Below are positions 10,321 through 63,998 of a stretch of 64,000 bases of DNA, one piece after another. Position 1 is the first letter of the stretch, and the number at the start of each line of letters is the position of its first letter. The stretch is from a virus. The position numbers were made by a program, and so were the translations under genes. Below the pieces are notes generated by a model. That model made no database searches, was not told the DNA's origin, and saw nothing but the letters and a program-made list of their open reading frames with translations. The stretch is taken from the IMG/VR virus record IMGVR_UViG_3300030061_003724, positions 1-64,000 of that record; one strand, 5' to 3'.

Positions 10321-11110
10321 ATTTTATTCCCTTTATAATCTCACCATTTTTAGGATTGTGAGATAAGTTATTAAATAGTTGAGGGGCAATTCCCCATTTA
10401 TACATAAATAACTGAGCTGCAGGTCCTTCAGTCGCTCTAAACTTTTCACCTTCGTTCCCATTCTTTGTAGCTGTACTACCAAAATGGTATAGGTGCGCTT
10501 CATGTGTTCTAACAAAGCCGATACCGTTTAAATCCAGTTTTAAGAAGAAATCCCAGTCACATATAAAAGGAGATTGATACATTACGTCAAATCCTCCTAC
10601 AATCATATATTCTTTCTTATACATTGCAAAGGGGAATATGCCTCCATCAACCGTTAACTTATTATTTTTTATTGTTTTTTCATATTCAATAAATTTTGAG
10701 TATTCAAAATCTTTAGGGTTACGTCCAAAATCATATTCAGGAAAATCAAACATACTAGGGCCTGTAGGTTCTATTTGATTTAATGTTAATACTGATTTTT
10801 CTTTAACATTGTTTAATATAACATCATCAAAATCAGAACAAAAAACATTATCATCATTAACAATGAAAATAATTTCATTACTAGCATTCATTACAGCTAA
10901 ATTAAGTGCTTGCTGCATACCTTGATTTGCACCTAAATCTAATATTTTAATATGTTCCCTATGTTTATCTAAAACATGTTTACTTTCTTCAATAAATCCA
11001 TCTACAGCAACAATAATTTCATTTTTATGATTTTGTTGATCAATAGCTGATTGTAAACAAATATCTAAATAATCTGGATTTCTATAAGTTGGAATAATTA
11101 TACTAATCAT
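10313..11110 (-). CDS. GT2 glycosyltransferase
   Basis: ISIIIPTY, IIVAVDG, VNDD, GGFD...CDWDF. Confidence 0.85.
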   Translation of the reverse strand: MISIIIPTYRNPDYLDICLQSAIDQQNHKNEIIVAVDGFIEESKHVLDKHREHIKILDLGANQGMQQALNLAVMNASNEIIFIVNDDNVFCSDFDDVILNNVKEKSVLTLNQIEPTGPSMFDFPEYDFGRNPKDFEYSKFIEYEKTIKNNKLTVDGGIFPFAMYKKEYMIVGGFDVMYQSPFICDWDFFLKLDLNGIGFVRTHEAHLYHFGSTATKNGNEGEKFRATEGPAAQLFMYKWGIAPQLFNNLSHNPKNGEIIKGIKYE

Positions 11111-11730
11111 AATGTACTATAATAATCATTTTGTTTTTCTTGTCTTTTTATATCTTTAGGATGATATAAGCAATATTCTTCTTTAGCTGGTAATGTTGAA
11201 TAATGATTAAATCCTTCTAATACTTCATGTACTTTATTTTTCCAATTAATATCAGGTACATTTTTCCAAATACGCCATTGATAATCAGGGAAATTAACAT
11301 GACCTTTTTCATCAACTCTCCAACCCCATTTTACTATATGATCTTGAGTTAGACCTTCTACTGTATTAATTCTAGGTACTAATACAACTTCAATTTTTTC
11401 ATTTGATTCTAGTATTGCAGGTAATTGATTTATCAAATTTTCATTTGGTATTTCATCTGCATCAATTTGAAATATATAATCACCTGAACACATTTCTGTT
11501 AATTGGTTTTTCCAATCAGCAAAATGATGTTTAAATGTAGCTGCTTTATATACTACATTTTTTTCACCTTTAAGTTCAATAATACGATTCCATACTTCAG
11601 CTGTACCATTTCCTTTATCAAATAAAATTACAATTTCATCCTCTTTTCTTCTAAACTTTAAAAGAGTATTTAATAATTTAGTAACTTCATCTAATTCGTT
11701 ACAAACAGTAATTGCATAACTTATTTTCAT
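11107..11730 (-). CDS. GT2 glycosyltransferase
   Basis: KISYAITVCNE, FQIDADE, PDYQWR, VHE; start at ATG 11730 behind promoter 11750-11779. Confidence 0.85.
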   Translation of the reverse strand: MKISYAITVCNELDEVTKLLNTLLKFRRKEDEIVILFDKGNGTAEVWNRIIELKGEKNVVYKAATFKHHFADWKNQLTEMCSGDYIFQIDADEIPNENLINQLPAILESNEKIEVVLVPRINTVEGLTQDHIVKWGWRVDEKGHVNFPDYQWRIWKNVPDINWKNKVHEVLEGFNHYSTLPAKEEYCLYHPKDIKRQEKQNDYYSTL

Positions 11731-11731
11731 A

Positions 11732-12181
11732 TTATTCAGGTAATACTCCAATATACGACAAAGCATCCATATAATCACGTTCTTCAAATAACTTCATTGT
11801 CTGCATATCAGGTTTATATTCTAATTTTTTACCATCTTTAGTTTTTTCTGGTTTGTCTAATTTTTGAGCTTTAACTGCTGCCCATTTCCAATCTTCAACA
11901 CTAGTGCCATAAGCAAATACCATACCTTGTTCAGGTAAATTGATATGATTTGGCAGCCAAATTAATTCTGTGTCTAAATCAATCCAAGCTAAATCTTTAT
12001 ATAATTCAGGTAGAGTAATCAATTGTTCTTTATAAAATTCACTATCTCCTTTCATCAATGAATTAGTCCAAAAACCACATGACATACTAAAGTAATTAGT
12101 AACTTCAGGTGTAACTTCTACTCTATAACATAAATCACCTCCTGATTTTGGGCAATTAATTATTTCATCAAATTGTTGCAT
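11732..12181 (-). CDS. hypothetical protein
   Basis: 149 aa ORF. Confidence 0.7.
   Translation of the reverse strand: MQQFDEIINCPKSGGDLCYRVEVTPEVTNYFSMSCGFWTNSLMKGDSEFYKEQLITLPELYKDLAWIDLDTELIWLPNHINLPEQGMVFAYGTSVEDWKWAAVKAQKLDKPEKTKDGKKLEYKPDMQTMKLFEERDYMDALSYIGVLPE
11750..11779 (-). promoter_or_regulatory. early/middle promoter CGTG-N18-CGTATATT
   Basis: Fixed-spacing motif 20 nt upstream of ATG 11730. Confidence 0.55.
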
Positions 12182-12182
12182 A

Positions 12183-14926: not shown

Positions 14927-14931
14927 TTTGT

Positions 14932-15120
14932 TTATAGTTCAATATTCGTTTGATTAGTAATTTGTTTTCTAAAATCTTCATCAGTAAGATATAAATAAAG
15001 ACTACGATCTGCAAGTTTTTGGAATGAGAATTTTCTTCTAACACATTCTACTTTGAAATCATTAAATAAATCACTTTGAACTTTGACACTTGTAAGTGTC
15101 ATCTTTTTTGGATTTGCCAT
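14932..15120 (-). CDS. small putative DNA-binding (ribbon-helix-helix-like) protein
   Basis: Beta-strand TSVKV followed by two helices; ATATGTATA motif at 15151-15159. Confidence 0.55.
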   Translation of the reverse strand: MANPKKMTLTSVKVQSDLFNDFKVECVRRKFSFQKLADRSLYLYLTDEDFRKQITNQTNIEL

Positions 15121-16150: not shown

Positions 16151-16154
16151 AATT

Positions 16155-18671: not shown

Positions 18672-20696
<2,025 letters not shown>

Positions 20697-25754: not shown

Positions 25755-27448
25755 ATTTTTAATTTTAATTCGCCTCTAATTACTTTATTCATATGTCTAT
25801 TAGCACATAAAGCACTTTCTTGTATAATTCTTTGTCCTGATAGTGTAATAGCTTCTGATAAGATTACATTACCATATCTGAAACTACCTAATGCTGTTGC
25901 TCCATATAAACTATTAAGCAAAATTTTCATTGTATATTGCATTAAATAGTTATATTCACCTTTTTCTGTGTCTCCAGCTTTATAAGCTGATTTCATACGT
26001 CCCTTATAAATAACACGTTCTTCAAACCATTTTTTAAGAATTGTAGATAATACTGATTCTCTATCTGTCTCAAAAAATACCCCATTAGCTGATATTGCTA
26101 AGTTGTTTTCTTCAATCATTTGAATTAGTTTTTTTACAGGTACATATGCTTGTCTACGATGTTTATTTTCTACTAATAATTCTTCTTCAGGGTCACGTTC
26201 TTTTAAATCGTTAAGTGCCAATCTATTATTACGGTCATCTGCATCTATGATACGTCCCTTGAGTGTTTCTTTACCTATGTTTATACTCATTATAATTGAT
26301 GGATACAGCGATGTTAAATCTTCATCAAACATATACTTGTATAATCCTGCTTTAGGGCAAAATAAATAACCACCAGCATAATTCTTTTTATGAATTGGAT
26401 TTTCATCTCTTCTAGGTGGAATAATTCCTTGAGATAATAGATAAGCTGAAATGGCACCATCTTGTGATACCGTATTAGCATAAACTTCACTATAATTATG
26501 TTTTCCTTTATGAGATAAGTTTTTAGTTAAAGCAATATACTGTAACTTTTCATCTAATAATTTTAATATTTCAACATCACGGAAGTTATACTGAATAAAT
26601 TTCTGAATATCAGTTTCAAATAATTGATCTAGGTTTCCTTCATAATCAACTTTACCTACTTTAGCATATTTTTCTCCAATAGCATCTAATTTCCAGCTTG
26701 GTTCATCTTTCCAACTATACTTTTTATGTAAACGCATATAATCTAAAGATTCAACTCCAATAATTTCTACAAATTGATTACGCTTAAACCAATATTGATT
26801 ACCTTTTCTACAATTTACTTTACCAATTGGGGATAAATGTCTAGCAAAATCTTCACCTATTGTATTACACATTCTATAGTACAAATAAGGAATATCAAAG
26901 AAATCACTATTATAACCTATTAAAATATCTGGGTCTATGTCTCTAATAAACTCAATAAATTTACCTAGTAATTCATTTTCAGTTCTACAAGGTATAATTT
27001 CTTTATTTTTAGCTTTAGTATGTTTTAATTGATTCTTTTTATCAAGAATTAAAATATGCCAAGTATCAGGTGTTTTATCCCACCAAGCAATTGAAGTAAT
27101 AGGCATAGGAGCACTTTCAATATAATCTTCAGTTAATGCACCTCCTATTTCACACTCAATATCAAAAAATACTTCTCTATGACCAGTAGAAGGTGTATCA
27201 TCAGTACCATATCTTTCAATTAAATATTTTTGATATGGCTTCATATCATGGAAATGAATGTTTGAAGTATTTTTATCCCATTTATAAGTTTTAGTTAGTT
27301 TTTCACCATTAATGCCTTTAAGGTTACCATTTGAATCTTCAACATAAGCTGGGTTCCACCATTCTATTTCGTCATAGCCTGCTTCGTCCCAAAGATGTAT
27401 TTTGAATTTATTTTTACCTAAATTTGTTGCGTAGCATTTTTTATACAT
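25751..27448 (-). CDS. family B DNA polymerase, N-terminal part (3'-5' exonuclease, motifs A and B)
   Basis: FFDIE, GYNSDFFD, YNFRDV, DLTSLYPS, KILLNSLYG; ends before motif C. Confidence 0.92.
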   Translation of the reverse strand: MYKKCYATNLGKNKFKIHLWDEAGYDEIEWWNPAYVEDSNGNLKGINGEKLTKTYKWDKNTSNIHFHDMKPYQKYLIERYGTDDTPSTGHREVFFDIECEIGGALTEDYIESAPMPITSIAWWDKTPDTWHILILDKKNQLKHTKAKNKEIIPCRTENELLGKFIEFIRDIDPDILIGYNSDFFDIPYLYYRMCNTIGEDFARHLSPIGKVNCRKGNQYWFKRNQFVEIIGVESLDYMRLHKKYSWKDEPSWKLDAIGEKYAKVGKVDYEGNLDQLFETDIQKFIQYNFRDVEILKLLDEKLQYIALTKNLSHKGKHNYSEVYANTVSQDGAISAYLLSQGIIPPRRDENPIHKKNYAGGYLFCPKAGLYKYMFDEDLTSLYPSIIMSINIGKETLKGRIIDADDRNNRLALNDLKERDPEEELLVENKHRRQAYVPVKKLIQMIEENNLAISANGVFFETDRESVLSTILKKWFEERVIYKGRMKSAYKAGDTEKGEYNYLMQYTMKILLNSLYGATALGSFRYGNVILSEAITLSGQRIIQESALCANRHMNKVIRGELKLKI

Positions 27449-27593
27449 GCAATTTTGATAATATGGTTTTTATTTCTTCTACTTTATATTTACATTCTTG
27501 TCCCTCACACAAGTCTTGACAACATCTATCTGTATTCAGGTAAATGAAATCTAATAATTCTTCTACTTTATCTAAATCTCCTTCTTCTAACAT
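27441..27593 (-). CDS. small Cys-containing protein (50 aa, not in ORF track)
   Basis: MLEEGDLDKVEELLDFIYLNTDRCCQDLCEGQECKYKVEEIKTILSKLHV; overlaps both neighbours. Confidence 0.65.
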   Translation of the reverse strand: MLEEGDLDKVEELLDFIYLNTDRCCQDLCEGQECKYKVEEIKTILSKLHV

Positions 27594-28159
27594 TAAATCC
27601 CTAAATGTTGTTGTGGTCTAGTTTTTTGTATTTCATCTACTGTAAAGAATTGATGTAAATCAGGTCTAAAATAATTAATTGATTTCATTACTTTACGATC
27701 TCTGCTTCTATAGACAATCCATCTTCCTGGTGCAACTTCTTCATAATGGCAGGCCTCACCTTGTTCCTTACTTCTCTGGCTGACGGTCTGTATGGCTTCT
27801 TCTTCAGTTTTACAAGCTTTCGACATATTGCTTGCTTGTACCTCTTGATAAGCGGGCCATATCTTATCCTTAAGACCGTGTAACATAACACCGTTCCCAA
27901 GGGAAACATAAGTAATGTCGCACAAAGCGTCCAAAATTTCCACAATGTCGCCCCGTTCGCAAGCTTCTCTATACTCTTCAAGTTCTTCGAGGACAAAATC
28001 GTAGACGAATTGCCATTCCTTTTGATCTGGAATTGTAACTTCATAATTATTAGGTTTATTAAATGTTTCGTTAAATGTTTCCACTTCATTAACAAACGGA
28101 ACATTACCGTTTTCCTTCGAATTGTAGACGTCAAAGTCTAATTTTAGTTGTTTACTCAT
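27593..28159 (-). CDS. MazG-like all-alpha NTP pyrophosphohydrolase
   Basis: EELEE...EILDALCD, EVQASNMSK; likely start ATG 28159. Confidence 0.8.
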   Translation of the reverse strand: MSKQLKLDFDVYNSKENGNVPFVNEVETFNETFNKPNNYEVTIPDQKEWQFVYDFVLEELEEYREACERGDIVEILDALCDITYVSLGNGVMLHGLKDKIWPAYQEVQASNMSKACKTEEEAIQTVSQRSKEQGEACHYEEVAPGRWIVYRSRDRKVMKSINYFRPDLHQFFTVDEIQKTRPQQHLGI

Positions 28160-28545
28160 TTTAGATAATCTTGTATTGTTATTGAATCTTCTCTTTCCCA
28201 TGGATATACTATCCATTGATCACTTACTTCCTTAGCATAAAAATTATGTTGAAATTTAGAAGTAGGTTTATGATGTAAAGTAGCCCAGTATACACCTGGT
28301 GCTTTACTCAATGTCTCTCCTGTATCATTAATATCATCTACTACTAAAGTATTTTTACCTGGGTGTAATACAAAAGGTAAATCAATTTCATGTGAAATTA
28401 ATACTGCTGGGATTAAACCTCCTCTCGGTAATCCCATTACTGAATCTATATTTGGATAATCTGTTAGAATTTTTTTACATAATATGTTTACACATTCATG
28501 TATTTCAGACCATTCAAGGTATACTTTAGATATTGTGTCCGCCAT
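28156..28545 (-). CDS. purine phosphoribosyltransferase (Gpt-like)
   Basis: PRGG, VVDDINDTGETL PRPP-binding motif, WIVYPWE. Confidence 0.88.
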   Translation of the reverse strand: MADTISKVYLEWSEIHECVNILCKKILTDYPNIDSVMGLPRGGLIPAVLISHEIDLPFVLHPGKNTLVVDDINDTGETLSKAPGVYWATLHHKPTSKFQHNFYAKEVSDQWIVYPWEREDSITIQDYLK

Positions 28546-29218
28546 TATTTATTTTTAAACTATCAAAGAATTCTTTTCTAGCTAGGTTATCATTTTCTCT
28601 AAATACTCCTGTTGCTTTAGTTGTAACCATAGCAGCACCTTGATGTTTAACACCTCTACAACTTACACAATTATGTGTTCCTACTACTGTAACAATTACA
28701 CCTTTATTATTTTCACAAATTTTATTTACAGCATTATGGATTGCTGATGTTAGTTGTTCTTGAATTGCTCCTCTTCTTCCAAACAATTCTACTATTCTAT
28801 TTAACTTAGATAATCCAATTACTCTACCATTATCTCCAACAACATATCCAATATGAACTACACCTCCAATTGTTTGATGGTGATGTGAACACATTGAAGT
28901 TAACGGTATATTTCGTTCTATAACAATGCCATCATAACCATCTGATGGGAATGATGTGATTGGAGACATCTGTGTGTATCTACCAGCCCACAAATCATTT
29001 ACATATGCTTTAGCTACTCTCATAGGAGTATCAGCTGAGTTGGGATCATTCTGCCAATCACATTTTAATGCCTCTAAAAATCGGGCATATGCTTTAGCAG
29101 CTTTGTTTATCATTTTTTGTTTTTCTTTATCGTTTAGAGGAAATCCAGGTGCAACTCCATTTGCGAATCCTTCTTGTACTACCTCTAAGTCGTTGTGATT
29201 TTTTCTACGATTGCTCAT
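28526..29218 (-). CDS. folE: GTP cyclohydrolase I
   Basis: DTPMRVAK, MCSHH, IGLSKLNR, QE, HNCVSCRGV. Confidence 0.95.
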   Translation of the reverse strand: MSNRRKNHNDLEVVQEGFANGVAPGFPLNDKEKQKMINKAAKAYARFLEALKCDWQNDPNSADTPMRVAKAYVNDLWAGRYTQMSPITSFPSDGYDGIVIERNIPLTSMCSHHHQTIGGVVHIGYVVGDNGRVIGLSKLNRIVELFGRRGAIQEQLTSAIHNAVNKICENNKGVIVTVVGTHNCVSCRGVKHQGAAMVTTKATGVFRENDNLARKEFFDSLKINNGGHNI

Positions 29219-29342
29219 TTATATAACTTTCTAATTTATCTATTAATACTAGTACTTCATCTGGTTCCATTGTAATGGCACAACAAACGTGTACATTTTC
29301 CTTTATGTCTTCTAATATACGAAGGGCTTCTTGCTTATCCAC
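29205..29342 (-). CDS. small protein with CC motif (45 aa, not in ORF track)
   Basis: GTG start overlapping the queE stop; MDKQEALRILEDIKENVHVCCAITMEPDEVLVLIDKLESYINEQS. Confidence 0.55.
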   Translation of the reverse strand: MDKQEALRILEDIKENVHVCCAITMEPDEVLVLIDKLESYINEQS

Positions 29343-29343
29343 T
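29314..29343 (-). promoter_or_regulatory. early/middle promoter AGTG-N18-CGTATATT
   Basis: Recurring motif upstream of folE. Confidence 0.55.
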
Positions 29344-30127
29344 ATACTTCTCGTTTATCTTCAAAAGCAATAATATGTGGTCTCCAAGTCATTCTATAAC
29401 CATTATCTCTAACCCAATCAAATAATACTGGGTAGGACTTAAATAGTGCTTCTCTAGAATCACCTGCAGGCATAAACCATACTTTTTCAGGTTTAACTTC
29501 TAACTGAGCTATACAATCCATAATTTCAGCTAGTGCTCCTTTATCCTTACCATCCCAAACTGGTTTGATATGAAAATCCGAATGGTACGCTATTGATTGT
29601 TTTATAGCTGCATAATTAAGTCTTAATTTATTATGTTGTTTTACCATTTTTTCGTCTGTAACTTTTCCTTGAGGAGTAAGAGTACCAACAACGGGGACGC
29701 TATTACTAAACTTAGGAGAAATTGACAGAAGATTAATAGGATAATCAGTAGGAAGGAAATGTGATCCTTCAGTTTCCATAGTAATGAATATATTGTTTTC
29801 ATGTGCAAAGTGGGTTAACTCGTTAACCAAAGCAGCATGCATTGAAGGAGAACCTCCAGTCAACATCATTTCCTTTATATGAGGATTTTTCTCATACATG
29901 GCAATGATATCTTTAAAATTAAAGTGACCTTTTTCTGGATGGATACTAGTGTACCAAGAATCACACCATCCACCTTCACCGAAATAACATCTGTGGGTGC
30001 ATCCTGTTGTTCTAATTACTACTGTTGGGTATCCTGCTCTTGATCCTTCTGATTGTACTGCAGTGTAGATTTCTACAATTGGGAGGTTTTTATCGTAATC
30101 CTCAATACGTTTCAGTTGCTTGTGCAT
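29342..30127 (-). CDS. queE: 7-carboxy-7-deazaguanine synthase (radical SAM)
   Basis: EIY.AVQSEG..G.P...RT.GC, CDS.YT, TGG, ETEG, SISPK, R.H. Confidence 0.9.
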   Translation of the reverse strand: MHKQLKRIEDYDKNLPIVEIYTAVQSEGSRAGYPTVVIRTTGCTHRCYFGEGGWCDSWYTSIHPEKGHFNFKDIIAMYEKNPHIKEMMLTGGSPSMHAALVNELTHFAHENNIFITMETEGSHFLPTDYPINLLSISPKFSNSVPVVGTLTPQGKVTDEKMVKQHNKLRLNYAAIKQSIAYHSDFHIKPVWDGKDKGALAEIMDCIAQLEVKPEKVWFMPAGDSREALFKSYPVLFDWVRDNGYRMTWRPHIIAFEDKREV

Positions 30128-30170
30128 ATTGTTAATTTTTTATAGTGGTTTTTCATTCACTGTTGTAACT

Positions 30171-30635
30171 TTATTCGCTGTAATAAGCAGCATTTTTTCC
30201 ATGTTCTGCAAACTTAACTTTGACAACTCTTACTCTATTGTCTGTTTCAGTTTTAACAAAATCATTTAATTTGTGATAAATATATTCAGCAAATTTCTCT
30301 GCGCCAGTAGCTGGGATAACCCTTACTTGAGCTACTCCTGCTGTATCCATTTGTTTAAATGCTTCTAATTCTGGGTCATCTTCTGCCACAACTAAAGTGT
30401 GGTCAAACATATAATCCATCCATGCTTTAGGAGACATACCATCAATTTGAGTTTTAGCTCTTTTCATTCCACCAAAATCCCAAACCCAATTTCTATGATC
30501 TAAATCTCCTTCAAAGTATACTTTAAAAGAAACTCCATAACCATGAACAAATCTACAGTGTGTTGTTGTTGCTTTCCATTGACGAAACACTGTACTAAAA
30601 CCGTCAAATACTTTACTTGATTGAAACTTACCCAT
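30171..30635 (-). CDS. queD: 6-carboxytetrahydropterin synthase-like T-fold protein
   Basis: HCRFVHGY, WVWDFG, FDHT; adjacent to queE. Confidence 0.85.
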   Translation of the reverse strand: MGKFQSSKVFDGFSTVFRQWKATTTHCRFVHGYGVSFKVYFEGDLDHRNWVWDFGGMKRAKTQIDGMSPKAWMDYMFDHTLVVAEDDPELEAFKQMDTAGVAQVRVIPATGAEKFAEYIYHKLNDFVKTETDNRVRVVKVKFAEHGKNAAYYSE

Positions 30636-30876
30636 TATACCAATTTAATATGTCTTCCCTTGACCTGTTACCTACTACTCTAGCTAATTCATTATTGTTT
30701 TGATCTACTTTAATTAAAGTTGGGACTGATCTAACTGAGTAATGACTTGCTTTTTCCATATCCTCATCAATATTTACTTTATGAATTGGAATATCTAAAC
30801 TTAATTTGTCCATTACTGGTCCTAATGCTCTACAAGGACCACACCATGGAGCTGTAAAATAAATTATTTTATTCAT
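30628..30876 (-). CDS. trxA: thioredoxin
   Basis: WCGPC, SVPT. Confidence 0.9.
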   Translation of the reverse strand: MNKIIYFTAPWCGPCRALGPVMDKLSLDIPIHKVNIDEDMEKASHYSVRSVPTLIKVDQNNNELARVVGNRSREDILNWYNG

Positions 30877-30894
30877 ATTTAATTTTTATTATAA

Positions 30895-31140
30895 TTATAC
30901 TAATTCTTCTACTATACCTATAACCTCAGATAATATAAGAACTCCTACTGCTAACTCCAAGCTATATAACAAAAGTCCATAACCTGCTAATCTAACTCCT
31001 GATTTAACGAAACTAACTATTTGGTGTTTCTTTTGATCAGGCATGTGTTCTAAATTTTTTCTATCTTTAATTATCCCATCCATATCTTTTATTTCTATCA
31101 TTTCTTTTTTTGTCATTGGTGCTCTATATATCATATCCAT
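30895..31140 (-). CDS. small membrane protein
   Basis: C-terminal hydrophobic hairpin ending GIVEELV. Confidence 0.65.
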   Translation of the reverse strand: MDMIYRAPMTKKEMIEIKDMDGIIKDRKNLEHMPDQKKHQIVSFVKSGVRLAGYGLLLYSLELAVGVLILSEVIGIVEELV

Positions 31141-31514
31141 TTATTTTTTTTAAAGTAAGTCCACATCCCTACTACTGTACCTACAGTTAAAACTGCAAAT
31201 ATCCAAAATCCATGATCGTCTGATATTAAAGGAACATCATCAAAATTCATTCCCCAAAGTCCAGTATAAAAAGATAATGGTAAAAATATTGTAGACCATA
31301 TTGTTAATAAATTTAACCTACGATTCATAAGATCATTATGTCTTTTTTCAATCATAGATTCTAACACTTCAAATATTTCTATTAAATCTAAGTGTTCGCC
31401 TTTTAATAATTCTCTTTTTAAATTATAAAAATCGTTTGTGTCGTAGCTTTTATTTTCAAATATTACAATTTCGTAATATTGTAAAGCTTTTTTTAATTGT
31501 TCTTTTCTTGCCAT
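31131..31514 (-). CDS. truncated CorA-family Mg2+ channel (mini-CorA)
   Basis: MNRRLNLLTIWSTIFLPLSFYTGLWGMNF, second TM helix, KKNKW. Confidence 0.8.
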   Translation of the reverse strand: MARKEQLKKALQYYEIVIFENKSYDTNDFYNLKRELLKGEHLDLIEIFEVLESMIEKRHNDLMNRRLNLLTIWSTIFLPLSFYTGLWGMNFDDVPLISDDHGFWIFAVLTVGTVVGMWTYFKKNKWI

Positions 31515-31696
31515 AAGTCTAATGTCCAAAGTAATGATTCAATAAAATATAAAACTCCAACTAACATCATTCCATAATGTGTCCATTCACCACTATGACC
31601 ATAAGTAAAGTCTTGGTAAATAGAAGGAATAGCAGAGCCCATAATTGAAACACTAAATAATAGTTTTACATATTTATTTTCTAAAAATTTTCTCAT
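31493..31696 (-). CDS. small two-TM membrane protein
   Basis: Two hydrophobic segments; ATGA-coupled to the upstream gene. Confidence 0.65.
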   Translation of the reverse strand: MRKFLENKYVKLLFSVSIMGSAIPSIYQDFTYGHSGEWTHYGMMLVGVLYFIESLLWTLDLWQEKNN

Positions 31697-32370
31697 TTGC
31701 AGCATTCTTTTGTTGATCTAATTTCTGGTACTGGATTTAATATTTTAACATTATAATTAATTACTAACCTATAATCGTTAACTGTAGGAGGACATCCTGC
31801 ATGTAAATAATCTTGTTTAAACATTATAATAGTACCTTTTTTAGGAGTAATTGATTTTCTAATTTCTAATTCTTTTCCTAAAGTCAGATAATTAATACCT
31901 TTATTTTTAAATATAATTGTATCACCATCCGAGTCATCAATATAATAAAGAAGAGTCCAACCTCCAAGCCCTTCAAAATCACAGTGCGGAATAAAACAAG
32001 TATCTTTATTCTCAGGAAGATCTTTATAATTGAAATTTGATTTAATTTTCATTAATTCATATTCCATATTAAAGTTTTTAGCTAAACTATTTAAAGGTGA
32101 AAGTATTAAGTCACTCCATACTTCTTTTTTATAATTCCAAACTCCTTCTTCATAGAAAACACTTTGAAATATACCAGGTCTTAATTGTACTTTTTTTCCT
32201 GGTATCTTAATAGAATCAATATCAATAGGATTTTTAATCATATTAGCTTGTGGTTTTCTTGTAGCCGCAAACTCATACTTTACTTTTCCTAAATGATCAT
32301 TTAAGATATTTTCCTGTATCTCTGGAGATACTATATTGGGAAATACATAAACTAAATCGTTTAAAACCAT
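31693..32370 (-). CDS. 2OG-Fe(II) oxygenase
   Basis: PHCD, LYYIDDSDGDT, PKKG...H...R.VIN. Confidence 0.8.
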   Translation of the reverse strand: MVLNDLVYVFPNIVSPEIQENILNDHLGKVKYEFAATRKPQANMIKNPIDIDSIKIPGKKVQLRPGIFQSVFYEEGVWNYKKEVWSDLILSPLNSLAKNFNMEYELMKIKSNFNYKDLPENKDTCFIPHCDFEGLGGWTLLYYIDDSDGDTIIFKNKGINYLTLGKELEIRKSITPKKGTIIMFKQDYLHAGCPPTVNDYRLVINYNVKILNPVPEIRSTKECCK

Positions 32371-32386
32371 ACTCTATTTTAATTTG

Positions 32387-32528
32387 TTGCCCAGGCAGGA
32401 CTCGAACCTGCGACCTCTTTGACCTCTTTGCTTTTCACGATCGATTGTATTACAAGTTTCCCTTCACGTTAAAGTTCAACTTCGCGCCGAGTTAAGCCAA
32501 AGCGAGCTACCTACTGCTCTACTGGGTA
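32387..32528 (-). tRNA. tRNA-like gene with a 76-nt segment in place of the anticodon loop (identity unresolved)
   Basis: Acceptor TACCCAG/CTGGGCA, D arm GAGC-AGTAGGTA-GCTC, stem CTTTG/CAAAG, variable loop AGGTC, T arm GCAGG-TTCGAGT-CCTGC. Confidence 0.7.
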
Positions 32529-32536
32529 TATTTTTG

Positions 32537-32609
32537 TTGTCCCGCCAGGTTTCGAACCTGGACTCTTCTGAACCAAAATCAGACGTGTTACCAGTTACAC
32601 CACAGGACA
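32537..32609 (-). tRNA. tRNA-Gln(TTG)
   Basis: Full cloverleaf, anticodon arm TCTGA-TTTTGGT-TCAGA; CCA not encoded. Confidence 0.95.
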
Positions 32610-32614
32610 TTTAG

Positions 32615-32688
32615 TGGAGGATATCGGAGTCGAACCGATGACCTCTTGAATGCAAATCAAGTGCTCTAGCCAGCTGAGCTAATCCCCC
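32615..32688 (-). tRNA. tRNA-Ala(TGC)
   Basis: Full cloverleaf, CTTGA-TTTGCAT-TCAAG, G3:U70 identity pair. Confidence 0.95.
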
Positions 32689-32694
32689 TACCTT

Positions 32695-33489
32695 TTAAGC
32701 TGCGTATTCAGCAAGCAATTTCTCTACGTGAGATTTTGCTACTTCGTAATCAACTTCTCCAGTTTCATCCTCATACTGTACAGGATCTTTTCTCCCCAGA
32801 GCAATAAAAGCCTCAATCCTCTCAACACTAGAAGCAGACTTATAATCACTATTTCCTGAAGGATATGGTTTATAAGAAGTATTTGTTCTCTTATAAACTT
32901 CATCAAATTCAATACCCAACGTATCAACCAAACTCTCTCCATCCTTTAAAATTCCTAATTTATCTGTGTCAATATAAGGTATAAAAAATCCTACTTTATC
33001 AGCATCCCAATTACCAATTTTGAAAGCTTCATAATCAGCATCTCTAAATTCTTGTCTACAATCAGGATAGATAGCATGATCACCAGCATGGATACCTAAA
33101 GCAATATCACATTCATCTCCTGTTTTTTTAGATACAGATAATGCTACTGCTTGAGTTAATGAAGAGAAAATTTTATTTCTATTAGGTACAACTGTTGCTA
33201 CCATATTTTCTTCTTCATAATGACCTTCTGGTACATCTTCTCCACCTTCTACAAGGTTAGAATCTAGTAGGTTTACTAAACCATCTAATTTAATTACTTG
33301 ATAAGTAACATTCTGACCATTAGCATTTAAATAATCTACTAATGATTGTGCTCTTTCAAGTTCCACTCTATGCTTCTGACCGTAATCAAAAGATAAAGCT
33401 GTTACATTGTCATACTCAGATAAACATCTAAGTAGTAAAGTTGAGGAGTCCATCCCTCCAGATAAGGACACTACGACATTTTTTGCCAT
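32695..33489 (-). CDS. queC: 7-cyano-7-deazaguanine synthase
   Basis: SGGMDS, FDYGQKH, VPNRN, YPDCR. Confidence 0.93.
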   Translation of the reverse strand: MAKNVVVSLSGGMDSSTLLLRCLSEYDNVTALSFDYGQKHRVELERAQSLVDYLNANGQNVTYQVIKLDGLVNLLDSNLVEGGEDVPEGHYEEENMVATVVPNRNKIFSSLTQAVALSVSKKTGDECDIALGIHAGDHAIYPDCRQEFRDADYEAFKIGNWDADKVGFFIPYIDTDKLGILKDGESLVDTLGIEFDEVYKRTNTSYKPYPSGNSDYKSASSVERIEAFIALGRKDPVQYEDETGEVDYEVAKSHVEKLLAEYAA

Positions 33490-33695
33490 GATTTAAAATA
33501 ATTAATTAAATTTTGCCAGGTATTATTAAGCGTATAGGCAAACGCTGACTTTAAATGTTTGAATTTACATTTAAGATAAGATATAGTATAATGATAAATA
33601 GCTACTAATCCAAACCCTCCTGTAAGAAGAGTCCAAATGTTTGGATGCCAGTGCTCTCCACAAAATCCTAATGCATGTTTTATTATTTCTGCCAT
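33471..33695 (-). CDS. small membrane protein
   Basis: HALGFCGEHWHP followed by a hydrophobic segment. Confidence 0.6.
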   Translation of the reverse strand: MAEIIKHALGFCGEHWHPNIWTLLTGGFGLVAIYHYTISYLKCKFKHLKSAFAYTLNNTWQNLINYFKSWQKMS

Positions 33696-33696
33696 A

Positions 33697-33894
33697 TTAT
33701 TCGTTTTCTTTAAATTCTACGTCACCGTAATCATCAATCGGTTTATCTCTTACCAGGTCCCAATCTGCATCATCTATAATTTCTTGTTGAAGGTCTTCAT
33801 CACCTGTTTTCCACTTTGCTAATTCTTCTTCTGTTAAGATATATTCTTCCCATCTGAAGTTGCAATAATTTACTGTTCTTGTTAATTTAGCCAT
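33697..33894 (-). CDS. small acidic hypothetical protein
   Basis: 65 aa ORF. Confidence 0.65.
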   Translation of the reverse strand: MAKLTRTVNYCNFRWEEYILTEEELAKWKTGDEDLQQEIIDDADWDLVRDKPIDDYGDVEFKENE

Positions 33895-47372: not shown

Positions 47373-48443
47373 TTATTCTGGTTCTTTTTCGAAATGTGAA
47401 ATGTTCTCAACATAATTTTCTTCAATGATATCAAAATCACCTCCACCAAGCACTTTAGCCCAATCAGATGAATTATCTGATTTATATTGTTTTAGTTCTT
47501 TATCGTTATCATTAATGAAACCATGTGGAGTCATAACAATTTTTCCCCTCGTAGTAACACCATTAATATGATTCTTGTCAATTTGAATGTTTACTCTTTT
47601 AGCAAATTCAACTTGCTTACCATCTTTAATTGCTTTAATTTTAGATGTACCAGCATTTGAAATATTACCAAATGTAACTACAAATGTAGAATCAAACCAC
47701 ATAGCAAATCCACCTTTATTCATTAATTTAGGTTGACCCATAGGTGATTCTGCTTTTGCTGTCCACACTTTATTAATACAAACTAATGTATTAGTAAATG
47801 GTGATGACTCTTTTCTTGACAATGTAATTCTTTGGTTTACATTATTTCCAAATTGAGTTGACATTGCACCTGCATTCCATTCATTATTATTTTTATTTGA
47901 TTTAATAGACATTTCACAAGGTACTGATCCAATACTATCCCATAAGAATAATAAATCATAAGGTAAATTACCTTTCTTTTGTTCATCTAATAAATCTAAA
48001 ATAAATCCAGCTACGTCTTCAATTGAGTGAATAGTTTCTCTATCAACATAAAGAAAATTACCATCATAATCTACAACTTCACCGTTTTCATCTCTTTCAA
48101 TATTAATGTCTAATCCCATTTGGATTGCATGTTCCCAATTCCATTTCATCTCAGTAATAATGAATACAGGCAGTATTCTACGCTTTTGCGCAGATACTGC
48201 TGCTTCAATTAATGCTGTTGTCTTACCTGTATCGGAGTGTCCTCTTAGTAACACAATGTGTCCCATAGGAATACCAGGAATAGAAGTAACATCTTGGAAT
48301 GCTTTTGATAAAGGTAACCATTCTTGGTCCTTAAATTTAACATTCTTGTCTAGTCCTTTCTTATTCTTAAAACTTGATAAATCAAATTTAGATTGGATTT
48401 CTTTAGAGACTGCCGCCGATAATGATTTCTTTTGTCTCGCCAT
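47373..48443 (-). CDS. RecA/UvsX-like recombinase
   Basis: GHSDTGKT, WDSIG, KGG. Confidence 0.88.
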   Translation of the reverse strand: MARQKKSLSAAVSKEIQSKFDLSSFKNKKGLDKNVKFKDQEWLPLSKAFQDVTSIPGIPMGHIVLLRGHSDTGKTTALIEAAVSAQKRRILPVFIITEMKWNWEHAIQMGLDINIERDENGEVVDYDGNFLYVDRETIHSIEDVAGFILDLLDEQKKGNLPYDLLFLWDSIGSVPCEMSIKSNKNNNEWNAGAMSTQFGNNVNQRITLSRKESSPFTNTLVCINKVWTAKAESPMGQPKLMNKGGFAMWFDSTFVVTFGNISNAGTSKIKAIKDGKQVEFAKRVNIQIDKNHINGVTTRGKIVMTPHGFINDNDKELKQYKSDNSSDWAKVLGGGDFDIIEENYVENISHFEKEPE

Positions 48444-49342: not shown

Positions 49343-49810
49343 CTATACTTCAATTATTTTATAAATTTTTGTATTCAATTGATTCAACTCATTATGTTGT
49401 GTTAAAAGAATACAGTTTTTGTATTGCTGCCAATTTACTTGATATTTGGTATCAACAACACCACCATTAAGTTTTTTAATTAACTCATTTAAAGCATTAA
49501 TAGTGTATAAGGTATTAGATTCCTTCTTTCTATGGACTAGAATAGTATTTTCTGGGATTGTATGAACGTTACCTTGGTCAACGTTATAAGTGATAACATA
49601 TTCATCTTTATCAACTATTTCTAAAACAAAAAGTTTGTTATAAATAATCGTATACTTTGACGTAATTTCGTCTAGTAAAGAATCTAAATTATCAATATCC
49701 GTAAATGTACAAAATAACTTGTTATTCAAATCACCAATATTATTTAATGATGTTATTACATCATAGTTCACATTATACGTATTCGGAGGTCTATCTAAAG
49801 TCGTAATCAT
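49343..49810 (-). CDS. conserved-looking hypothetical protein
   Basis: LFCTF, HRKKESNTLYTINALN. Confidence 0.75.
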   Translation of the reverse strand: MITTLDRPPNTYNVNYDVITSLNNIGDLNNKLFCTFTDIDNLDSLLDEITSKYTIIYNKLFVLEIVDKDEYVITYNVDQGNVHTIPENTILVHRKKESNTLYTINALNELIKKLNGGVVDTKYQVNWQQYKNCILLTQHNELNQLNTKIYKIIEV

Positions 49811-51059
49811 TTCCTTGTTTAGTTTTTATATTTAACTTATATTTTTTGAATATTTCTTTTATGTCATTTAAAACTTGTGTCTCCTCCTCATCTAAATCAA
49901 ACAAAAACGAATCATAAGTATATAATACCAATTTTGTTTTTTTACCTCTTAACACTCGTAATATATCCCATAGTATACGAACGTTCATTGACGTTTCCAA
50001 GTTTTGTAACAAATAATTAAAAAGCTTTTGCGGATTCATATTATCCAATTTTTCCTTTTCATACTCATATCCCGAAACCGGACATTTTATTTTACCCTCG
50101 CTTTGAAATTTATTCCAGAGATCTTTTACGTATATATCTATTTTCTTAAAGAACTCAATATGTTTATAATTGTCGAATACTCCTCCGTATAGTTGCTTAA
50201 ATGTCAACTCTTTTGATTTCGCATAATCTACTCCATAGAGTTGTTGTAAATGAGAGTGAATATCCACAGAGGGAAAATTATAATCGACGAGACGACAAGA
50301 CAAGCTAGGATGATAAGCGCTAATGTCAATTTCGTACAAGCAATTATTATTTGGTATAAAAGATTTTCTACATCCATTTTCTTTATTAAGTGCTGCATAG
50401 TTTACTCCTTTAAATTTATTACTTGGTCTAGTTGTGGTTGTTTTTAAGTTGAACTGAGTGTAGACTCTTCCACTATCAACGGGATGGAAATATCCTTCGA
50501 ATGTAGGTATGTGTACTCGTATTCCACTTCGCTCGATAGCGTTGAATACCACGGATACTCTATGGTTAAAGAATTCATCATAATCTGTTTTTGTTTTAGT
50601 TATATTATCTTTTAAATCATTGAAAATTTGCTCGCACATTTCATAGTGTTTAACAACTGGAATGAATGTATTTATATCTTTATCATCCTTATGTTGATAA
50701 TACATTACCTCATGTGCTTTGGTTAATGGTCGTATATACGTAGTAGGAGGCACATTTATGTCGTAAAGAGCTTTGCTTGGATAATAATGTAACATCTCTT
50801 TTTTATCGCGACAAAATAAAATATCAAAATTATCTATTAATTGGTCTATACGCGTTTTTAACACACTCAAAGTTTCACTATGTGAAACACATAACATATA
50901 GCCTTTACTTGCATTTATTGGTCTAATATACACCAAACTCACAAGATTTTCTACGGGATGAACATTGTAACTATAAGGAATTACCTCAATGAAAGCTTGT
51001 TTATAACCGCTATTTAATAAAATATCTAATTGATCGTCTTCTTCTACTAACCAATACAT
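49791..51059 (-). CDS. compact family A DNA polymerase-like protein
   Basis: TTTTRPSN, motif A DISAYHP, motif B K..TFKQLYG, NYLLQ, motif C YTYDS. Confidence 0.8.
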   Translation of the reverse strand: MYWLVEEDDQLDILLNSGYKQAFIEVIPYSYNVHPVENLVSLVYIRPINASKGYMLCVSHSETLSVLKTRIDQLIDNFDILFCRDKKEMLHYYPSKALYDINVPPTTYIRPLTKAHEVMYYQHKDDKDINTFIPVVKHYEMCEQIFNDLKDNITKTKTDYDEFFNHRVSVVFNAIERSGIRVHIPTFEGYFHPVDSGRVYTQFNLKTTTTRPSNKFKGVNYAALNKENGCRKSFIPNNNCLYEIDISAYHPSLSCRLVDYNFPSVDIHSHLQQLYGVDYAKSKELTFKQLYGGVFDNYKHIEFFKKIDIYVKDLWNKFQSEGKIKCPVSGYEYEKEKLDNMNPQKLFNYLLQNLETSMNVRILWDILRVLRGKKTKLVLYTYDSFLFDLDEEETQVLNDIKEIFKKYKLNIKTKQGNDYDFR

Positions 51060-60565: not shown

Positions 60566-60593
60566 ATAGGGTAATTATATGTTATAAATATTA

Positions 60594-61605: not shown

Positions 61606-61655
61606 ATAATCTTTATTTAGTTTATAACGTGTTTTATAGTTATACATATTAATAT

Positions 61656-61682
61656 AAAAAAAAAGCTTGGCAAAGCCAAGCT
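61656..61682 (-). terminator. intrinsic terminator after the tail tube gene
   Basis: AGCTTGGC-TTT-GCCAAGCT followed by a T run on the minus strand. Confidence 0.85.
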
Positions 61683-61708
61683 ATTTTCATAAAATATGTA
61701 TTTTTTTC

Positions 61709-62197
61709 TTAGAAGTTTAAGATACAATAATCTGGTTGTACTTCTAGAGAAATTTCTTGAGCAGCATTTTCAGTATCCCAATTGTAATCTCCAAAATCAG
61801 CTGATGTAATTAATGCTCCTTTAATGATCCATTCAGATACTATATCACCTACTGGTCCTAGTACGTCTAATGTTAGATCTTTTTTATAGAAATCACTATA
61901 TCCATCTCTACCTGTTACTGATTCGTGGTGTAATCTTACCCATTCCATTACTGCTTGTGCACCTGATGGAGTAATTGGGTCAAATAACGTCATTGAAATT
62001 GGAGCCCATGTAGATTTACCTTTAACAAATCTTTGAACGTTAATATGATTTAAAGCTACTGTACCTTGGTTTAATGTTACAGCTCCCATACCTTTAATTT
62101 GGTACGATGGAATCCCATCTACATAAAGAATAAATCTATTCTTTTGTTTTGGCTCAAATGCTGTAAAAAATATTTCGTTTGGGTCTAATACTGCCAT
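61709..62197 (-). CDS. tail tube protein
   Basis: FEPK..NRF, W..I..TL.DPI, W...GA; directly after the sheath gene. Confidence 0.88.
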   Translation of the reverse strand: MAVLDPNEIFFTAFEPKQKNRFILYVDGIPSYQIKGMGAVTLNQGTVALNHINVQRFVKGKSTWAPISMTLFDPITPSGAQAVMEWVRLHHESVTGRDGYSDFYKKDLTLDVLGPVGDIVSEWIIKGALITSADFGDYNWDTENAAQEISLEVQPDYCILNF

Positions 62198-62216
62198 TTT
62201 TATTGTCTTATTTTAT

Positions 62217-62225
62217 TATAAATAT
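62217..62225 (-). promoter_or_regulatory. putative late promoter ATATTTATA
   Basis: Also at 58216, 60583, 38902 and 379; variants at 61641, 21596, 15151, 40882 and 4554. Confidence 0.65.
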
Positions 62226-62240
62226 TCTATTTTTTAGTTT

Positions 62241-63998
62241 TTATGATGGAAATGTTGCTCCAGTTGGAAGAACATTGAAATCCAAAATTATAAATTCAGC
62301 TGTTTTAGTTGGTTGTAAATAAATTTGACCTACTAACTCATTTCTATCAATAACATCTGGTGTGTTATTAGTAGCATCCATTACTACTTTAAACGCATAC
62401 AATCCTTGTCTTTGTTGTACTGATTCTAAGTATGGATTTACTTGTGATAAGAAATTATTTCTTGTGCTAATTGTATTTTGTTCAAATACTAAGTTATCTG
62501 ATACTTGTACAATAAAGCTCTTAAGTGAGATTAATAATCTTCTTACATTTACTCTATCTAAAGCGCTTGCTCTTTTCTGTAATGTTTTCTGACCAAATAC
62601 TACTGTTCCACTTCCTGGGAATGTTGCAATTGGGTTAACATTTGCTTCATATAATGTATCTCTATTACCTGAAGTTAATTTTCTTTCAGCTCTGATTACA
62701 TTTCCTAAAGCACCTCTAATTAAACCTGCTGGTGCAAACCATGGGTCAGATGATGCGTCTGTAAACGCATATACGCCTGGTATAAACACTGAAGCTGGGC
62801 TCCATACAGTTTGTGCTGTACTTGGATCAATCGATTGTAACCACGGCCAATACGCAGCTGCATAACTTGAATCAAATGCGCCTGCTTGTGTAGTTACTGT
62901 GTTGATTGTTGAATTATAAGGTACTAAATCAACTACTGCTATACAATCTGTTCTGCTTTGTGCCAAGCTAACCATTTGATTAACTGGTGAAGCGTGTAAA
63001 GAGTGAATTAAACCTGGAGCTGAGATTACATTAAATTGGTAATCATCAGTATTAGTTAATAGGTTTAATGATTGAGTATAATCATTTGGACCAACCCCTT
63101 GTATGTTAGTTGATGTAATATTTTCGTTAAATTTAGCATCATTGTTTTCATAGTTACTACCTTGTCCACCTTGGAACGAACCTGATGCTACAATTGGTAA
63201 GCTATTAAAGAATGAAGATTTAGCATTTCCATTATTGTCAAAATATTGTGGTGTAGGAGTTAATACACTTGAAACTCTTACATATGCACTTCTGTTAGGA
63301 TAGTTACCATTTGTTTTAACATAATAATCTGTACCATCTTGTTCTACTGTATAGTAAGTATCTCCAATTGCTCTAGCTACATAGTTAGGAGCTGTTGGAT
63401 CCATTGATAAGTTATTATAAGACTCTAATATTGCTTTTTGGTTATTAACGTCATTACCACGTCTAATGAATAAAGCAAATTGTCCTGATGCTGTATTTTG
63501 TGAAGGAATTTCCCATCTTAAGTTATCAGCTGTACCAAGTGGCAGAGCTCCGTTAGCTAAATCTCCTGTAGATGAGTAGTTATTCATAATACTACCTTCT
63601 GATAAAGTAGATAATGTAAATGCTACACCAGTAATTATATCAGCGGATGTTAATAGTACTTCTACGTTAGTTGTACCACCTATGGTAGATGAAGGAATTG
63701 ATAAGTATTCTCCAACTGCATATCCAGTTCCTGCTGTGAATTTTATACTAGTTACTGTTTGGTCTGAACCAACAACTACTACCGCTGCTGCACTATTACT
63801 TCCACCACCACCTGTGATATCACCTGCGTTTAATGTGTAAGATCCTACTATACCATCGGATGTGTTTGTTGATATTGAACCACTAACGTTAAATTGAGTA
63901 TTTAAAGTTCCTGCTGCAGTAGCTGCATTATGGATACTTGAAGAAGCTTCACTGAATGAGCCAGTTACTACTCTAGTTACTAATAGTGACTCGCCACC
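62241..63998 (-). CDS. contractile tail sheath protein (5' end outside the window)
   Basis: PWFAPAG..RG, NPI..F, GQKT, RVNVRRLL, VFEQN, P...AEFI; frame stays open to the window edge (GGESLLVTRV). Confidence 0.95.
   Translation of the reverse strand, partial: GGESLLVTRVVTGSFSEASSSIHNAATAAGTLNTQFNVSGSISTNTSDGIVGSYTLNAGDITGGGGSNSAAAVVVVGSDQTVTSIKFTAGTGYAVGEYLSIPSSTIGGTTNVEVLLTSADIITGVAFTLSTLSEGSIMNNYSSTGDLANGALPLGTADNLRWEIPSQNTASGQFALFIRRGNDVNNQKAILESYNNLSMDPTAPNYVARAIGDTYYTVEQDGTDYYVKTNGNYPNRSAYVRVSSVLTPTPQYFDNNGNAKSSFFNSLPIVASGSFQGGQGSNYENNDAKFNENITSTNIQGVGPNDYTQSLNLLTNTDDYQFNVISAPGLIHSLHASPVNQMVSLAQSRTDCIAVVDLVPYNSTINTVTTQAGAFDSSYAAAYWPWLQSIDPSTAQTVWSPASVFIPGVYAFTDASSDPWFAPAGLIRGALGNVIRAERKLTSGNRDTLYEANVNPIATFPGSGTVVFGQKTLQKRASALDRVNVRRLLISLKSFIVQVSDNLVFEQNTISTRNNFLSQVNPYLESVQQRQGLYAFKVVMDATNNTPDVIDRNELVGQIYLQPTKTAEFIILDFNVLPTGATFPS

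Follow-up and report, generated by a model that had tools for sequence, protein, structure and literature searches.

Conserved open reading frames, probably overprinted genes, in the +1 frame of core enzyme genes of an Immutovirus-like marine phage

Several core enzyme genes in a 64,000-nt stretch of phage DNA (the first 64 kb of the 81-kb IMG/VR record IMGVR_UViG_3300030061_003724, hereafter the window) probably carry younger protein-coding genes overprinted on the same strand in the +1 frame, five of which appear, from their conservation in relatives, to be under purifying selection. The window has a G+C content of ~30%, and every long open reading frame (ORF) in it lies on the minus strand, as do all features described below. 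A first-pass annotation made from these letters alone had flagged 14 hidden +1 ORFs spanning patches of unusual synonymous codons, and had read them as a second, unannotated small proteome. All 14 intervals proved to be minus-strand ORFs that run from ATG to stop in the +1 frame of a long minus-strand gene, and the codon patches are real: in the supported ORFs third-position C occurs at 2–3.7 times the expected frequency and A is depleted, while the flanks stay at ~1.0. Alignment of orthologues divided the 14 into five that are strongly conserved, two that are moderately conserved and seven that do no better than chance. Judged by their sequence conservation, the strongly supported frames are those we call MazG-alt (in a MazG-like gene), PolA-A and PolA-B (both in a PolA-like gene), the core of queE-alt, and an ORF within the gene at 35725–36885; queC-alt and groEL-alt have moderate support. 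Five, and maybe seven, of the proposed hidden genes thus stand as selected overprints, but the notion of a second proteome was overstated, as an unbiased scan of 62 aligned genes found four or five clearly stop-depleted regions, all of them +1 and none for which an antisense frame is the better reading.

One genome was insufficient to decide on the hidden ORFs. As a single-genome null we shuffled synonymous codons within each gene, and found 11 +1 ORFs of at least 50 codons in the window compared with 4.7 ± 1.8 after shuffling. The shuffled window still gave ~38 +1 ORFs of at least 28 codons and ~12 of at least 40 codons, and the longest +1 ORF in shuffled windows averaged 76 codons. ORFs of the flagged size are therefore expected by chance, and they are common because +1 is the frame poorest in stops in AT-rich genes. 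Tested gene by gene, the MazG ORF (138 codons as flagged) lay well beyond its null (mean 40 codons, 95% point 69; p ≤ 0.001), followed by those in queC (p = 0.004), PolA (p = 0.028), queE (p = 0.10) and groEL (p = 0.11). The queC value was lost after correction for 85 genes, leaving MazG as the sole gene-wise outlier. The shuffling null that the first-pass annotation had proposed as a check was therefore beaten by the MazG ORF, while the remaining flagged ORFs were not individually significant.

For the comparative test, six scans of IMG/VR yielded 403 loci, from which we built codon alignments of 62 window genes with 8–107 unique orthologues each; the genes in the first 10 kb of the window (1–10 kb) had too few relatives and lay outside the comparison. 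Stops in the +1 and +2 frames were predicted with a model that assigns a stop probability to each adjacent codon pair, given both amino acids and the codon usage of the window. The model was well calibrated, with an observed-to-expected ratio (O/E) over all genes of 0.94 for +1 stops and 1.07 for +2 stops. Most orthologues were near synonymous saturation, sharing 60–70% of synonymous codons with the window where full saturation was estimated at roughly 55%, and the PolA orthologues were not near-clonal (median pairwise nucleotide identity 0.77). Scanning all alignments without reference to the flagged intervals, we found stop-depleted +1 segments in MazG (27734–28039), in the PolA-like gene (50265–50390 and 50463–50558) and in the gene at 35725–36885 (36316–36483). 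The same scan of the +2 frame in the 62 genes gave nothing beyond one 15-column stretch inside PolA-A, which we considered as a coding frame and rejected, as it is accounted for by fixed rare codons.

Within the five strong ORFs, +1 stops occurred at an O/E of 0.02–0.14, compared with ~1.0 in the flanks, and the frame was open in 95–100% of orthologues despite 1.9–7.5 stops expected per sequence. The codons TTA, CTA, ATA and GTA (NTA), whose last two bases begin a +1 stop, made up 2–7% of the relevant codons before a purine and 38–75% before a pyrimidine; outside these ORFs NTA use was near 55–65% in both contexts. Because NTA is avoided only where the next base completes a +1 stop, there is no general bias against A-ending codons in these regions. 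By Fitch parsimony, each strong ORF had undergone 45–182 codon changes at potential-stop columns, of which 4–15% toggled the frame between open and closed, as opposed to 41–56% outside (Fisher p for toggling, 1e-7 to 1e-18). Three of the five also showed conserved columns fixed on rare codons (13/93 in MazG-alt, 9/29 in PolA-A and 6/43 in the ORF within 35725–36885), a state found in 0–4% of columns outside; the queE, queC and groEL overlaps had at most one such column each. Selection thus keeps five frames open, fixes residues in three of them and, where the product has a hydrophobic stretch, preserves its hydrophobicity.

The clearest case is MazG-alt, a +1 ORF of 118 codons plus stop (27688–28044) conserved in relatives and lying inside a gene for a MazG-like nucleoside triphosphate pyrophosphohydrolase (27593–28216; Pfam PRA-PH, 2e-09; phrog_671, 8e-31, residues 13–197). 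At the same position in MazG, the +1 frame was open for 115–149 codons in 79 of the first 80 loci. Across 71 unique orthologues, 7.5 stops were expected per sequence within MazG-alt and 0.23 were observed, whereas the rest of the gene showed 6.7 with 6.2 expected. Inside the overlap, Leu preceding a codon that starts with A or G was written TTA or CTA in none of 379 instances, compared with 84% outside, while Leu preceding a C- or T-starting codon was TTA or CTA 52% of the time; Ile and Val codons showed the same dependence on the next base, and NTA use overall was 2% before purines and 52% before pyrimidines. At 13 potential-stop columns, 19 of 182 codon changes toggled the frame, compared with 90 of 168 outside. 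The boundaries of the ORF are conserved as well. The start ATG at 28044 was formed by TAT followed by G in 104 of 105 sequences (85 expected) and TAC was never used, the stop at 27688 was kept in 96 of 106, and just 5′ of the ATG +1 stops were present in 58/71 relatives at one column and in 24/71 at another. The first-pass annotation had placed the start at 28104, which is specific to this genome: the upstream +1 extension (28045–28134, with ATG at 28104 and TTG at 28134) is not conserved, and the full 138-codon span was open in 6% of orthologues.

The MazG frame bears the marks of this constraint. All 13 conserved MazG columns fixed on codons that are rare in the genome lay inside the overlap and none outside; among them, a fixed TCC supplies the Pro of an almost invariant alternative-frame FPLG motif, and a fixed TTG supplies an invariant alternative-frame Cys. 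In the MazG frame, synonymous diversity was ~0.4 in the closest flanks and dropped to 0.13–0.25 where the frame overlies the hydrophobic segment and the basic tail. Two uncultured megaphages, with MazG homologues at 43% identity, and Tenacibaculum phage PTm1, with one at 31%, have equally AT-rich genomes and carried 6–13 +1 stops in this region, whereas the Immutovirus MazG (MW353175, 33370–33894), at 72% identity, contained a 117-codon +1 ORF (~33446–33799) that is unannotated in its record. Because the distant homologues lack the frame and Immutovirus has it, MazG is the older frame and the overprint arose in this lineage. The ORF is absent or has been lost in at least one sublineage, represented by IMGVR_UViG_3300027685_000217 (69% MazG identity), which has five +1 stops within the MazG-alt region. 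In ten other relatives the ORF ends 8–10 codons early. Database searches with the MazG-alt product returned 39 clusters, most at 52–98% identity and all unnamed, which by appearance are the same embedded ORF, called as a gene only now and then; we found no free-standing homologue among them, and the window's own genome holds a single copy.

Two further strong ORFs lie in tandem, with conserved stops between them, inside the PolA-like gene (49791–51059). PolA-A (50444–50581; 45 codons here and 49–55 in most relatives, with a double ATG start) was open in 58 of 59 orthologues at a stop O/E of 0.03, used NTA in 2% of instances before purines and 75% before pyrimidines, had nine of its 29 conserved columns fixed on rare codons as noted above, and kept its stop in 53/59. 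PolA-B (50228–50398; 56 codons here and 86–92 in most relatives) was open in 56 of 59 orthologues, again at an O/E of 0.03 (expected stops, 4.0 per sequence), and used NTA in 2% of instances before purines and 38% before pyrimidines. Its ATG, formed by TAT followed by G, was present in 59/59, and its end was variable (57 to 92 amino acids); Leu columns within it varied among CTT, CTC, TTG and CTG, with TTA in at most one or two sequences. Codon changes toggled the frame in 2/45 cases for PolA-A and 5/66 for PolA-B, compared with 191/465 outside. The Immutovirus PolA, at 35% identity, had stops in both regions. More distant MazG and PolA homologues thus lack the frames, which points to an origin within this phage lineage, where the alternative frames would have arisen by overprinting on the older host genes.

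The core of queE-alt and the ORF within 35725–36885 are strongly supported with qualifications of their own. The +1 ORF queE-alt (29641–29802, 53 codons, of which the first ~40 form the conserved core) lies in a queE-like radical SAM gene (29342–30127). Its core showed a stop O/E of 0.14, NTA use of 6% before purines and 38% before pyrimidines, and toggling in 15/103 changes compared with 252/452 outside; the ATG, found in 55/61 sequences (44.5 expected), sits just 3′ of three conserved +1 stops. The full 53-codon span was open in 33% of orthologues. In the gene at 35725–36885, relatives mostly carry a +1 ORF of 63–67 codons (open region ~36316–36483) with an O/E of ~0.1, NTA use of 7% before purines and 51% before pyrimidines, toggling in 6/81 changes compared with 344/713 outside, and six rare-codon columns compared with 0/183 outside. 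The interval flagged here, 36420–36515, is a truncated copy: in the window alone there is a stop at 36420–36422, and TTT followed by G replaces the TAT-plus-G start of the relatives. The overprinted ORF looks to have been recently lost or shortened in this genome.

Two ORFs were moderately supported. For queC-alt (54 codons from its second ATG, 32739–32903), the O/E was 0.19, NTA use was 10% before purines and 39% before pyrimidines, and 30/97 changes toggled the frame compared with 328/659 outside (p = 7e-4), with no fixed rare codons. The upstream part originally included in this ORF, 32904–32942, was closed in about half of the relatives and is dropped. For groEL-alt (19217–19345, 42 codons, hydrophilic and basic, present in about two thirds of relatives), the ORF was exactly 42 codons long in 49/75 sequences, the O/E was 0.33, NTA use was 17% before purines and 60% before pyrimidines, and toggling was 33/89 compared with 604/1154 outside (p = 6e-3). 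The other seven flagged ORFs, at 10333, 34901, 45279, 45714, 57751, 60948 and 62720, had O/E values of 0.45–1.33 and toggled at background level, which is no more than chance would give (for 10333 and 57751, from 12 orthologues each). For these seven, the cautions attached to the original proposal, that length and composition can produce such ORFs by chance, hold. Together with a dozen unflagged +1 ORFs they serve as internal negative controls, at O/E 0.6–1.4. Outside the flagged set, two +1 ORFs in a UvsX-like recombinase gene (47373–48443), at 48245–48343 and 47837–47986, were borderline, with O/E of 0.43 and 0.48 (84 orthologues) and NTA fractions of 0.25–0.28 before purines and 0.63–0.74 before pyrimidines.

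The predicted products fall into two kinds. The first-pass annotation had described several as membrane peptides, which fits MazG-alt, PolA-B and queE-alt, all transmembrane-like, but not PolA-A, groEL-alt or the 35725–36885 product. Hydropathy was compared as the maximal Kyte-Doolittle value over a 19-residue average (KD19). The 118-residue MazG-alt product (KD19 1.97) has a net charge of ~+21 and a hydrophobic segment kinked at FPLG, and AlphaFold2 modeled it as four helices with a predicted local distance difference test score (pLDDT) of 68. The PolA-B product (56–92 residues, KD19 3.04) has a hydrophobic run of ~38 residues and was modeled as helices at 3–61 and 69–90 (pLDDT 82); its long forms end in an additional helix, basic and amphipathic, a tail that is missing from the 56-residue form of this genome. 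The queE-alt product is a hydrophobic peptide of ~42–57 residues (KD19 2.59). The products of PolA-A, groEL-alt and the ORF within 35725–36885 (42–67 residues) are hydrophilic with low KD19, that of PolA-A being rich in Ser and Thr and that of the 35725–36885 ORF being basic. In the hydrophobic segments, third-position A in the host frame was depleted (O/E 0.38 in MazG-alt, 0.29 in PolA-B and 0.41 in queE-alt, with flanks at ~1.0) while T-ending codons were kept or enriched. An A-ending host codon in such a segment would place a polar residue in the product, through the second position of the alternative codon. Since the loss of A-ending codons coincides with the hydrophobic segments, hydrophobicity itself appears to be selected and is not a mere by-product of T-rich sequence. 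Searches of the alternative proteins against Pfam and PHROGs gave no credible family, and the ESM Atlas gave no named cluster for MazG-alt. A match of groEL-alt to phrog_1875 (E = 0.025) was rejected as not credible, and ESM Atlas look-alikes of MazG-alt (best score 0.89) fell in unrelated clusters and were kept as a lead only.

We next consider how these frames might be translated. Shine-Dalgarno (SD)-like motifs preceded 2 of 73 ATG-started genes, compared with 11% of all ATGs, and the starts of these 73 genes were A-rich at −14 to −9, with A at −3 in 64%. The same A-rich, A(−3) pattern has been described as the start rule of Flavobacterium johnsoniae (PMC6847099). The starts of MazG-alt, PolA-A and PolA-B had A at −3, and 10–13 of the 20 bases before them were A (gene mean 10.1, mean of all ATGs 7.8), whereas those of queE-alt and of queC-alt at its second ATG lacked a gene-like A-rich context. 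SD-independent initiation at A-rich internal ATGs, as suggested earlier, therefore fits the first three and not the last two. The simplest mechanism compatible with the sequences would be independent initiation, in which ribosomes would start each alternative ORF at an internal ATG of its own, following the SD-independent rule of Bacteroidota, on the polycistronic mRNA of its host gene. The three hydrophobic products might then enter the host inner membrane as small accessory infection proteins, and could conceivably perturb membranes in the manner of holins or toxins, set the timing of lysis or exclude superinfecting phages, suggestions in which we place low confidence.

Several alternative explanations were weighed against selected overprinting. 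That all 14 ORFs are chance products of a stop-poor +1 frame, with patches rich in third-position G and C sparing stops and T-ending codons mimicking hydrophobicity, is the correct account of the seven ORFs at background level, and it draws strength from the ~12 shuffled ORFs of at least 40 codons per window and from MazG alone being individually significant. As an explanation of the whole set we consider it most unlikely, as near-saturated orthologues keep the five strong frames open in 95–100% of cases, NTA is avoided only where a stop would form, and equally AT-rich outgroups are full of +1 stops. Alternatively, the unusual codons might have been selected for the sake of the host gene or its transcript, as accuracy-optimal C- or G-ending codons at residues important for catalysis or as part of a conserved RNA or DNA element. 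The patches do cover conserved enzyme cores (the MazG EExxE region and PolA motif A), third-position C and G are enriched 2–3.7 times, and the short PolA-A stretch is also poor in +2 stops. This explanation is very improbable all the same: NTA remains at 38–75% before pyrimidines inside the same patches, a single frame is depleted, between limits set by stops and an ATG, and the depletion runs over 45–118 codons that include poorly conserved host residues, the conserved cores of GroEL, helicase and sheath genes lack any such pattern, and the MazG homologues at 43% and 31% identity share the catalytic core with normal +1 stops.

Programmed +1 (or −2) frameshifting would instead yield fusion proteins, for example of the MazG N-terminus with an alternative C-terminus. 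The same-strand +1 geometry would allow it, the MazG +1 frame is open here for 30 codons 5′ of the conserved ATG, and three database proteins (P0030, P0035 and P0036) join PRA-PH similarity to alternative-frame similarity, although these may be assembly frameshifts. We nevertheless judge it unlikely, given that +1 stops lie a few codons before a near-invariant ATG, that TAT is preferred to TAC beyond codon bias (104/105 for MazG-alt and 59/59 for PolA-B), that inspection by eye of the short open upstream window revealed no obvious conserved slippery or hungry-codon motif, and that the conserved stops between PolA-A and PolA-B would prevent one shift from reading both. Finally, selection might act on the opposite strand, in the antisense frame whose codons align with those of the gene; stops in that frame (sense TTA, CTA and TCA) are also depleted at 27899–28027 and 50253–50390, with 0.1–0.2 observed per sequence and 4.1–4.7 expected. 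These open stretches are 44–46 codons long and lie within +1 ORFs that extend further; before purines, ATA and GTA are equally avoided, yet create no antisense stops; TTA and CTA are common (52%) before pyrimidines elsewhere in the MazG-alt region; the few columns of Ser, or of Leu before a pyrimidine, encode invariant alternative-frame Cys and Pro; and all window genes lie on one strand. An antisense frame is thus extremely improbable, and we rejected these stretches as a third coding frame, regarding them as a by-product of the avoidance of third-position A together with the fixed codons for alternative-frame Cys and Pro.

Selected +1 overprinting remains our preferred explanation for the five strong ORFs, but a number of observations weigh against it. 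The Fisher p values are calculated on alignment cells and are inflated by relatedness, which the Fitch counts correct roughly. Taken over all +1 ORFs, the O/E values show no gap from 0.3 to 0.6, so that the line between moderate support and chance is soft. Conservation of the host protein partly forces conservation of the alternative protein, and the hydrophobic segment of MazG-alt overlies the most conserved part of MazG; this segment is also short, kinked and flanked by basic residues on both sides, a poor fit to a simple membrane span. queE-alt has no fixed rare codons, a variable end and a poor start context (5 A at −20 to −1), and the ORF within 35725–36885, being broken in this genome, can evidently be lost. 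Neither a known family, a fold nor a gene neighbourhood points to a function for the products. The RNA-library contigs over the MazG region, which span parts of 27603–30228 at 90–100% identity, are uninformative on strand, transcript ends and reading frame, and may include DNA carry-over.

The window is half of the genome (~160 kb; CheckV completeness of the record, 50%) of an Immutovirus-like marine Flavobacteriia myophage. Among phages in culture, it is nearest to the 160-kb Flavobacterium phages vB_FspM_immuto (Immutovirus), with 72% nucleotide identity over the MazG/FolE/PRT region. Profile searches showed that the host genes had mostly been named correctly at first pass (MazG-like, QueC, Cpn60, DnaB-like helicase and GT2). 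The name queE is backed by a weak match to Pfam Radical_SAM that falls short of the gathering score, and by an Immutovirus neighbor annotated as QueE. The PolA-like protein had no Pfam, PHROG or meaningful Protein Data Bank (PDB) sequence match, but aligned at 35% identity over 94% of its length with the Immutovirus "DNA polymerase family A" protein, and blocks resembling motifs A, B and C were visible by eye in this pairwise alignment. On this alignment, we take the gene to be a polymerase module that has diverged strongly and, compared with the otherwise closer MazG/que cluster, has been exchanged. The MazG host gene lies within a 7-deazaguanine DNA-modification cluster (27593–34699) that also encodes a phosphoribosyltransferase (PRTase), FolE, QueE, QueD and QueC, and this one cluster contains three supported or possible overprints (MazG-alt, queE-alt and queC-alt). 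In Immutovirus, all guanine is replaced by a formylated preQ1 derivative (PMC10516641). Sequence near-identical to 27300–30300 occurs in marine metagenomes from several studies (2014–2025) and in marine metatranscriptome contigs; this phage lineage is found widely in the sea and is probably active there.

To our knowledge, embedded overlapping genes, although textbook features of tiny single-stranded DNA (ssDNA) and RNA viruses, are rarely documented and never automatically annotated in phages of ~160 kb. The present data point to at least five overprints that selection maintains throughout a large group of marine phages, sampled worldwide, with no obvious pressure on space. They also suggest that gene callers miss real genes in such phages and that patches of odd codons are a usable search signal. 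One of them, the MazG overprint, is present in a phage available in culture, Flavobacterium phage immuto, and earlier work has examined the DNA-modification cluster of this phage (PMC10516641). Gene birth by overprinting in a large phage, a possible promotion of such births by SD-independent initiation in Bacteroidota, and the roles during infection of small membrane and basic proteins hidden in MazG, DNA polymerase and QueE thus become testable. A broader and tentative idea, which we hold to be doubtful at present, is that phages of SD-blind Bacteroidota hosts, being able to start translation at any A-rich internal AUG free of structure, systematically evolve embedded +1 genes inside conserved enzymes, with at least 5–7 per half genome in this lineage and several of them encoding small membrane-active proteins that control lysis timing, exclusion or host physiology; if true, these phages would be a natural hotspot, among large double-stranded DNA (dsDNA) genomes, for the birth of genes de novo through overprinting.

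Among known systems, one with the same geometry is Rz1, the o-spanin embedded in Rz of phage lambda and its relatives, a lipoprotein with a signal peptide and a lipobox. Like Rz1, the ORFs described here would be small genes wholly inside a larger dsDNA-phage gene, sharing its strand and lying in its +1 frame, and some of their products may, like that of Rz1, be small envelope-associated proteins. Rz1 works in a lysis cassette together with Rz, the gene that contains it, whereas the present ORFs lie in genes for enzymes of nucleotide and DNA metabolism. No Rz1-like lipobox was conserved in the alignments of the alternative products, and the I-I-A-C of PolA-B in this genome was not kept in relatives. 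A second parallel is the lysis gene E of phiX174, which is overprinted on the scaffold gene D, inhibits MraY and depends on a proline in its hydrophobic helix. As in that case, we see what would be de novo +1 overprints on unrelated, older genes, some of them encoding short (here predicted) membrane proteins, and an x-P-L motif is likewise conserved or recurrent in the hydrophobic run of MazG-alt, PolA-B and some queE-alt copies; phiX174, however, has a 5.4-kb ssDNA genome under strong size pressure, whereas the present phage has ~160 kb and intergenic space. In size (50–95 amino acids), long hydrophobic stretch and basic C-terminal tail, some of the products may also recall class II holins, pinholins and type I toxin-like peptides, a likeness limited, for the basic tail, to the long PolA-B forms and some queE-alt copies. 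Pfam and PHROG searches with the alternative products revealed no similarity to these proteins, and we do not class the products as holins or spanins, as the ORFs lie outside a lysis cassette, in nucleotide-metabolism and replication modules, and have no conserved lipobox. A further match is the class of viral overlapping genes detected through synonymous constraint, for instance with FRESCo (PMC4376164; overlapping genes reviewed in PMC8227390), with which they share excess synonymous constraint, an open alternative frame, a lineage-restricted range and a proposed overprinting origin. Most documented overlaps come from small RNA and ssDNA viruses, unlike the several fully embedded overprints found here, which belong to a single lineage of large dsDNA phages whose host translation system is SD-less. 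On their sequence features, we place the alternative ORFs as unannotated additions to the known class of embedded +1 overprints, belonging to no known family.

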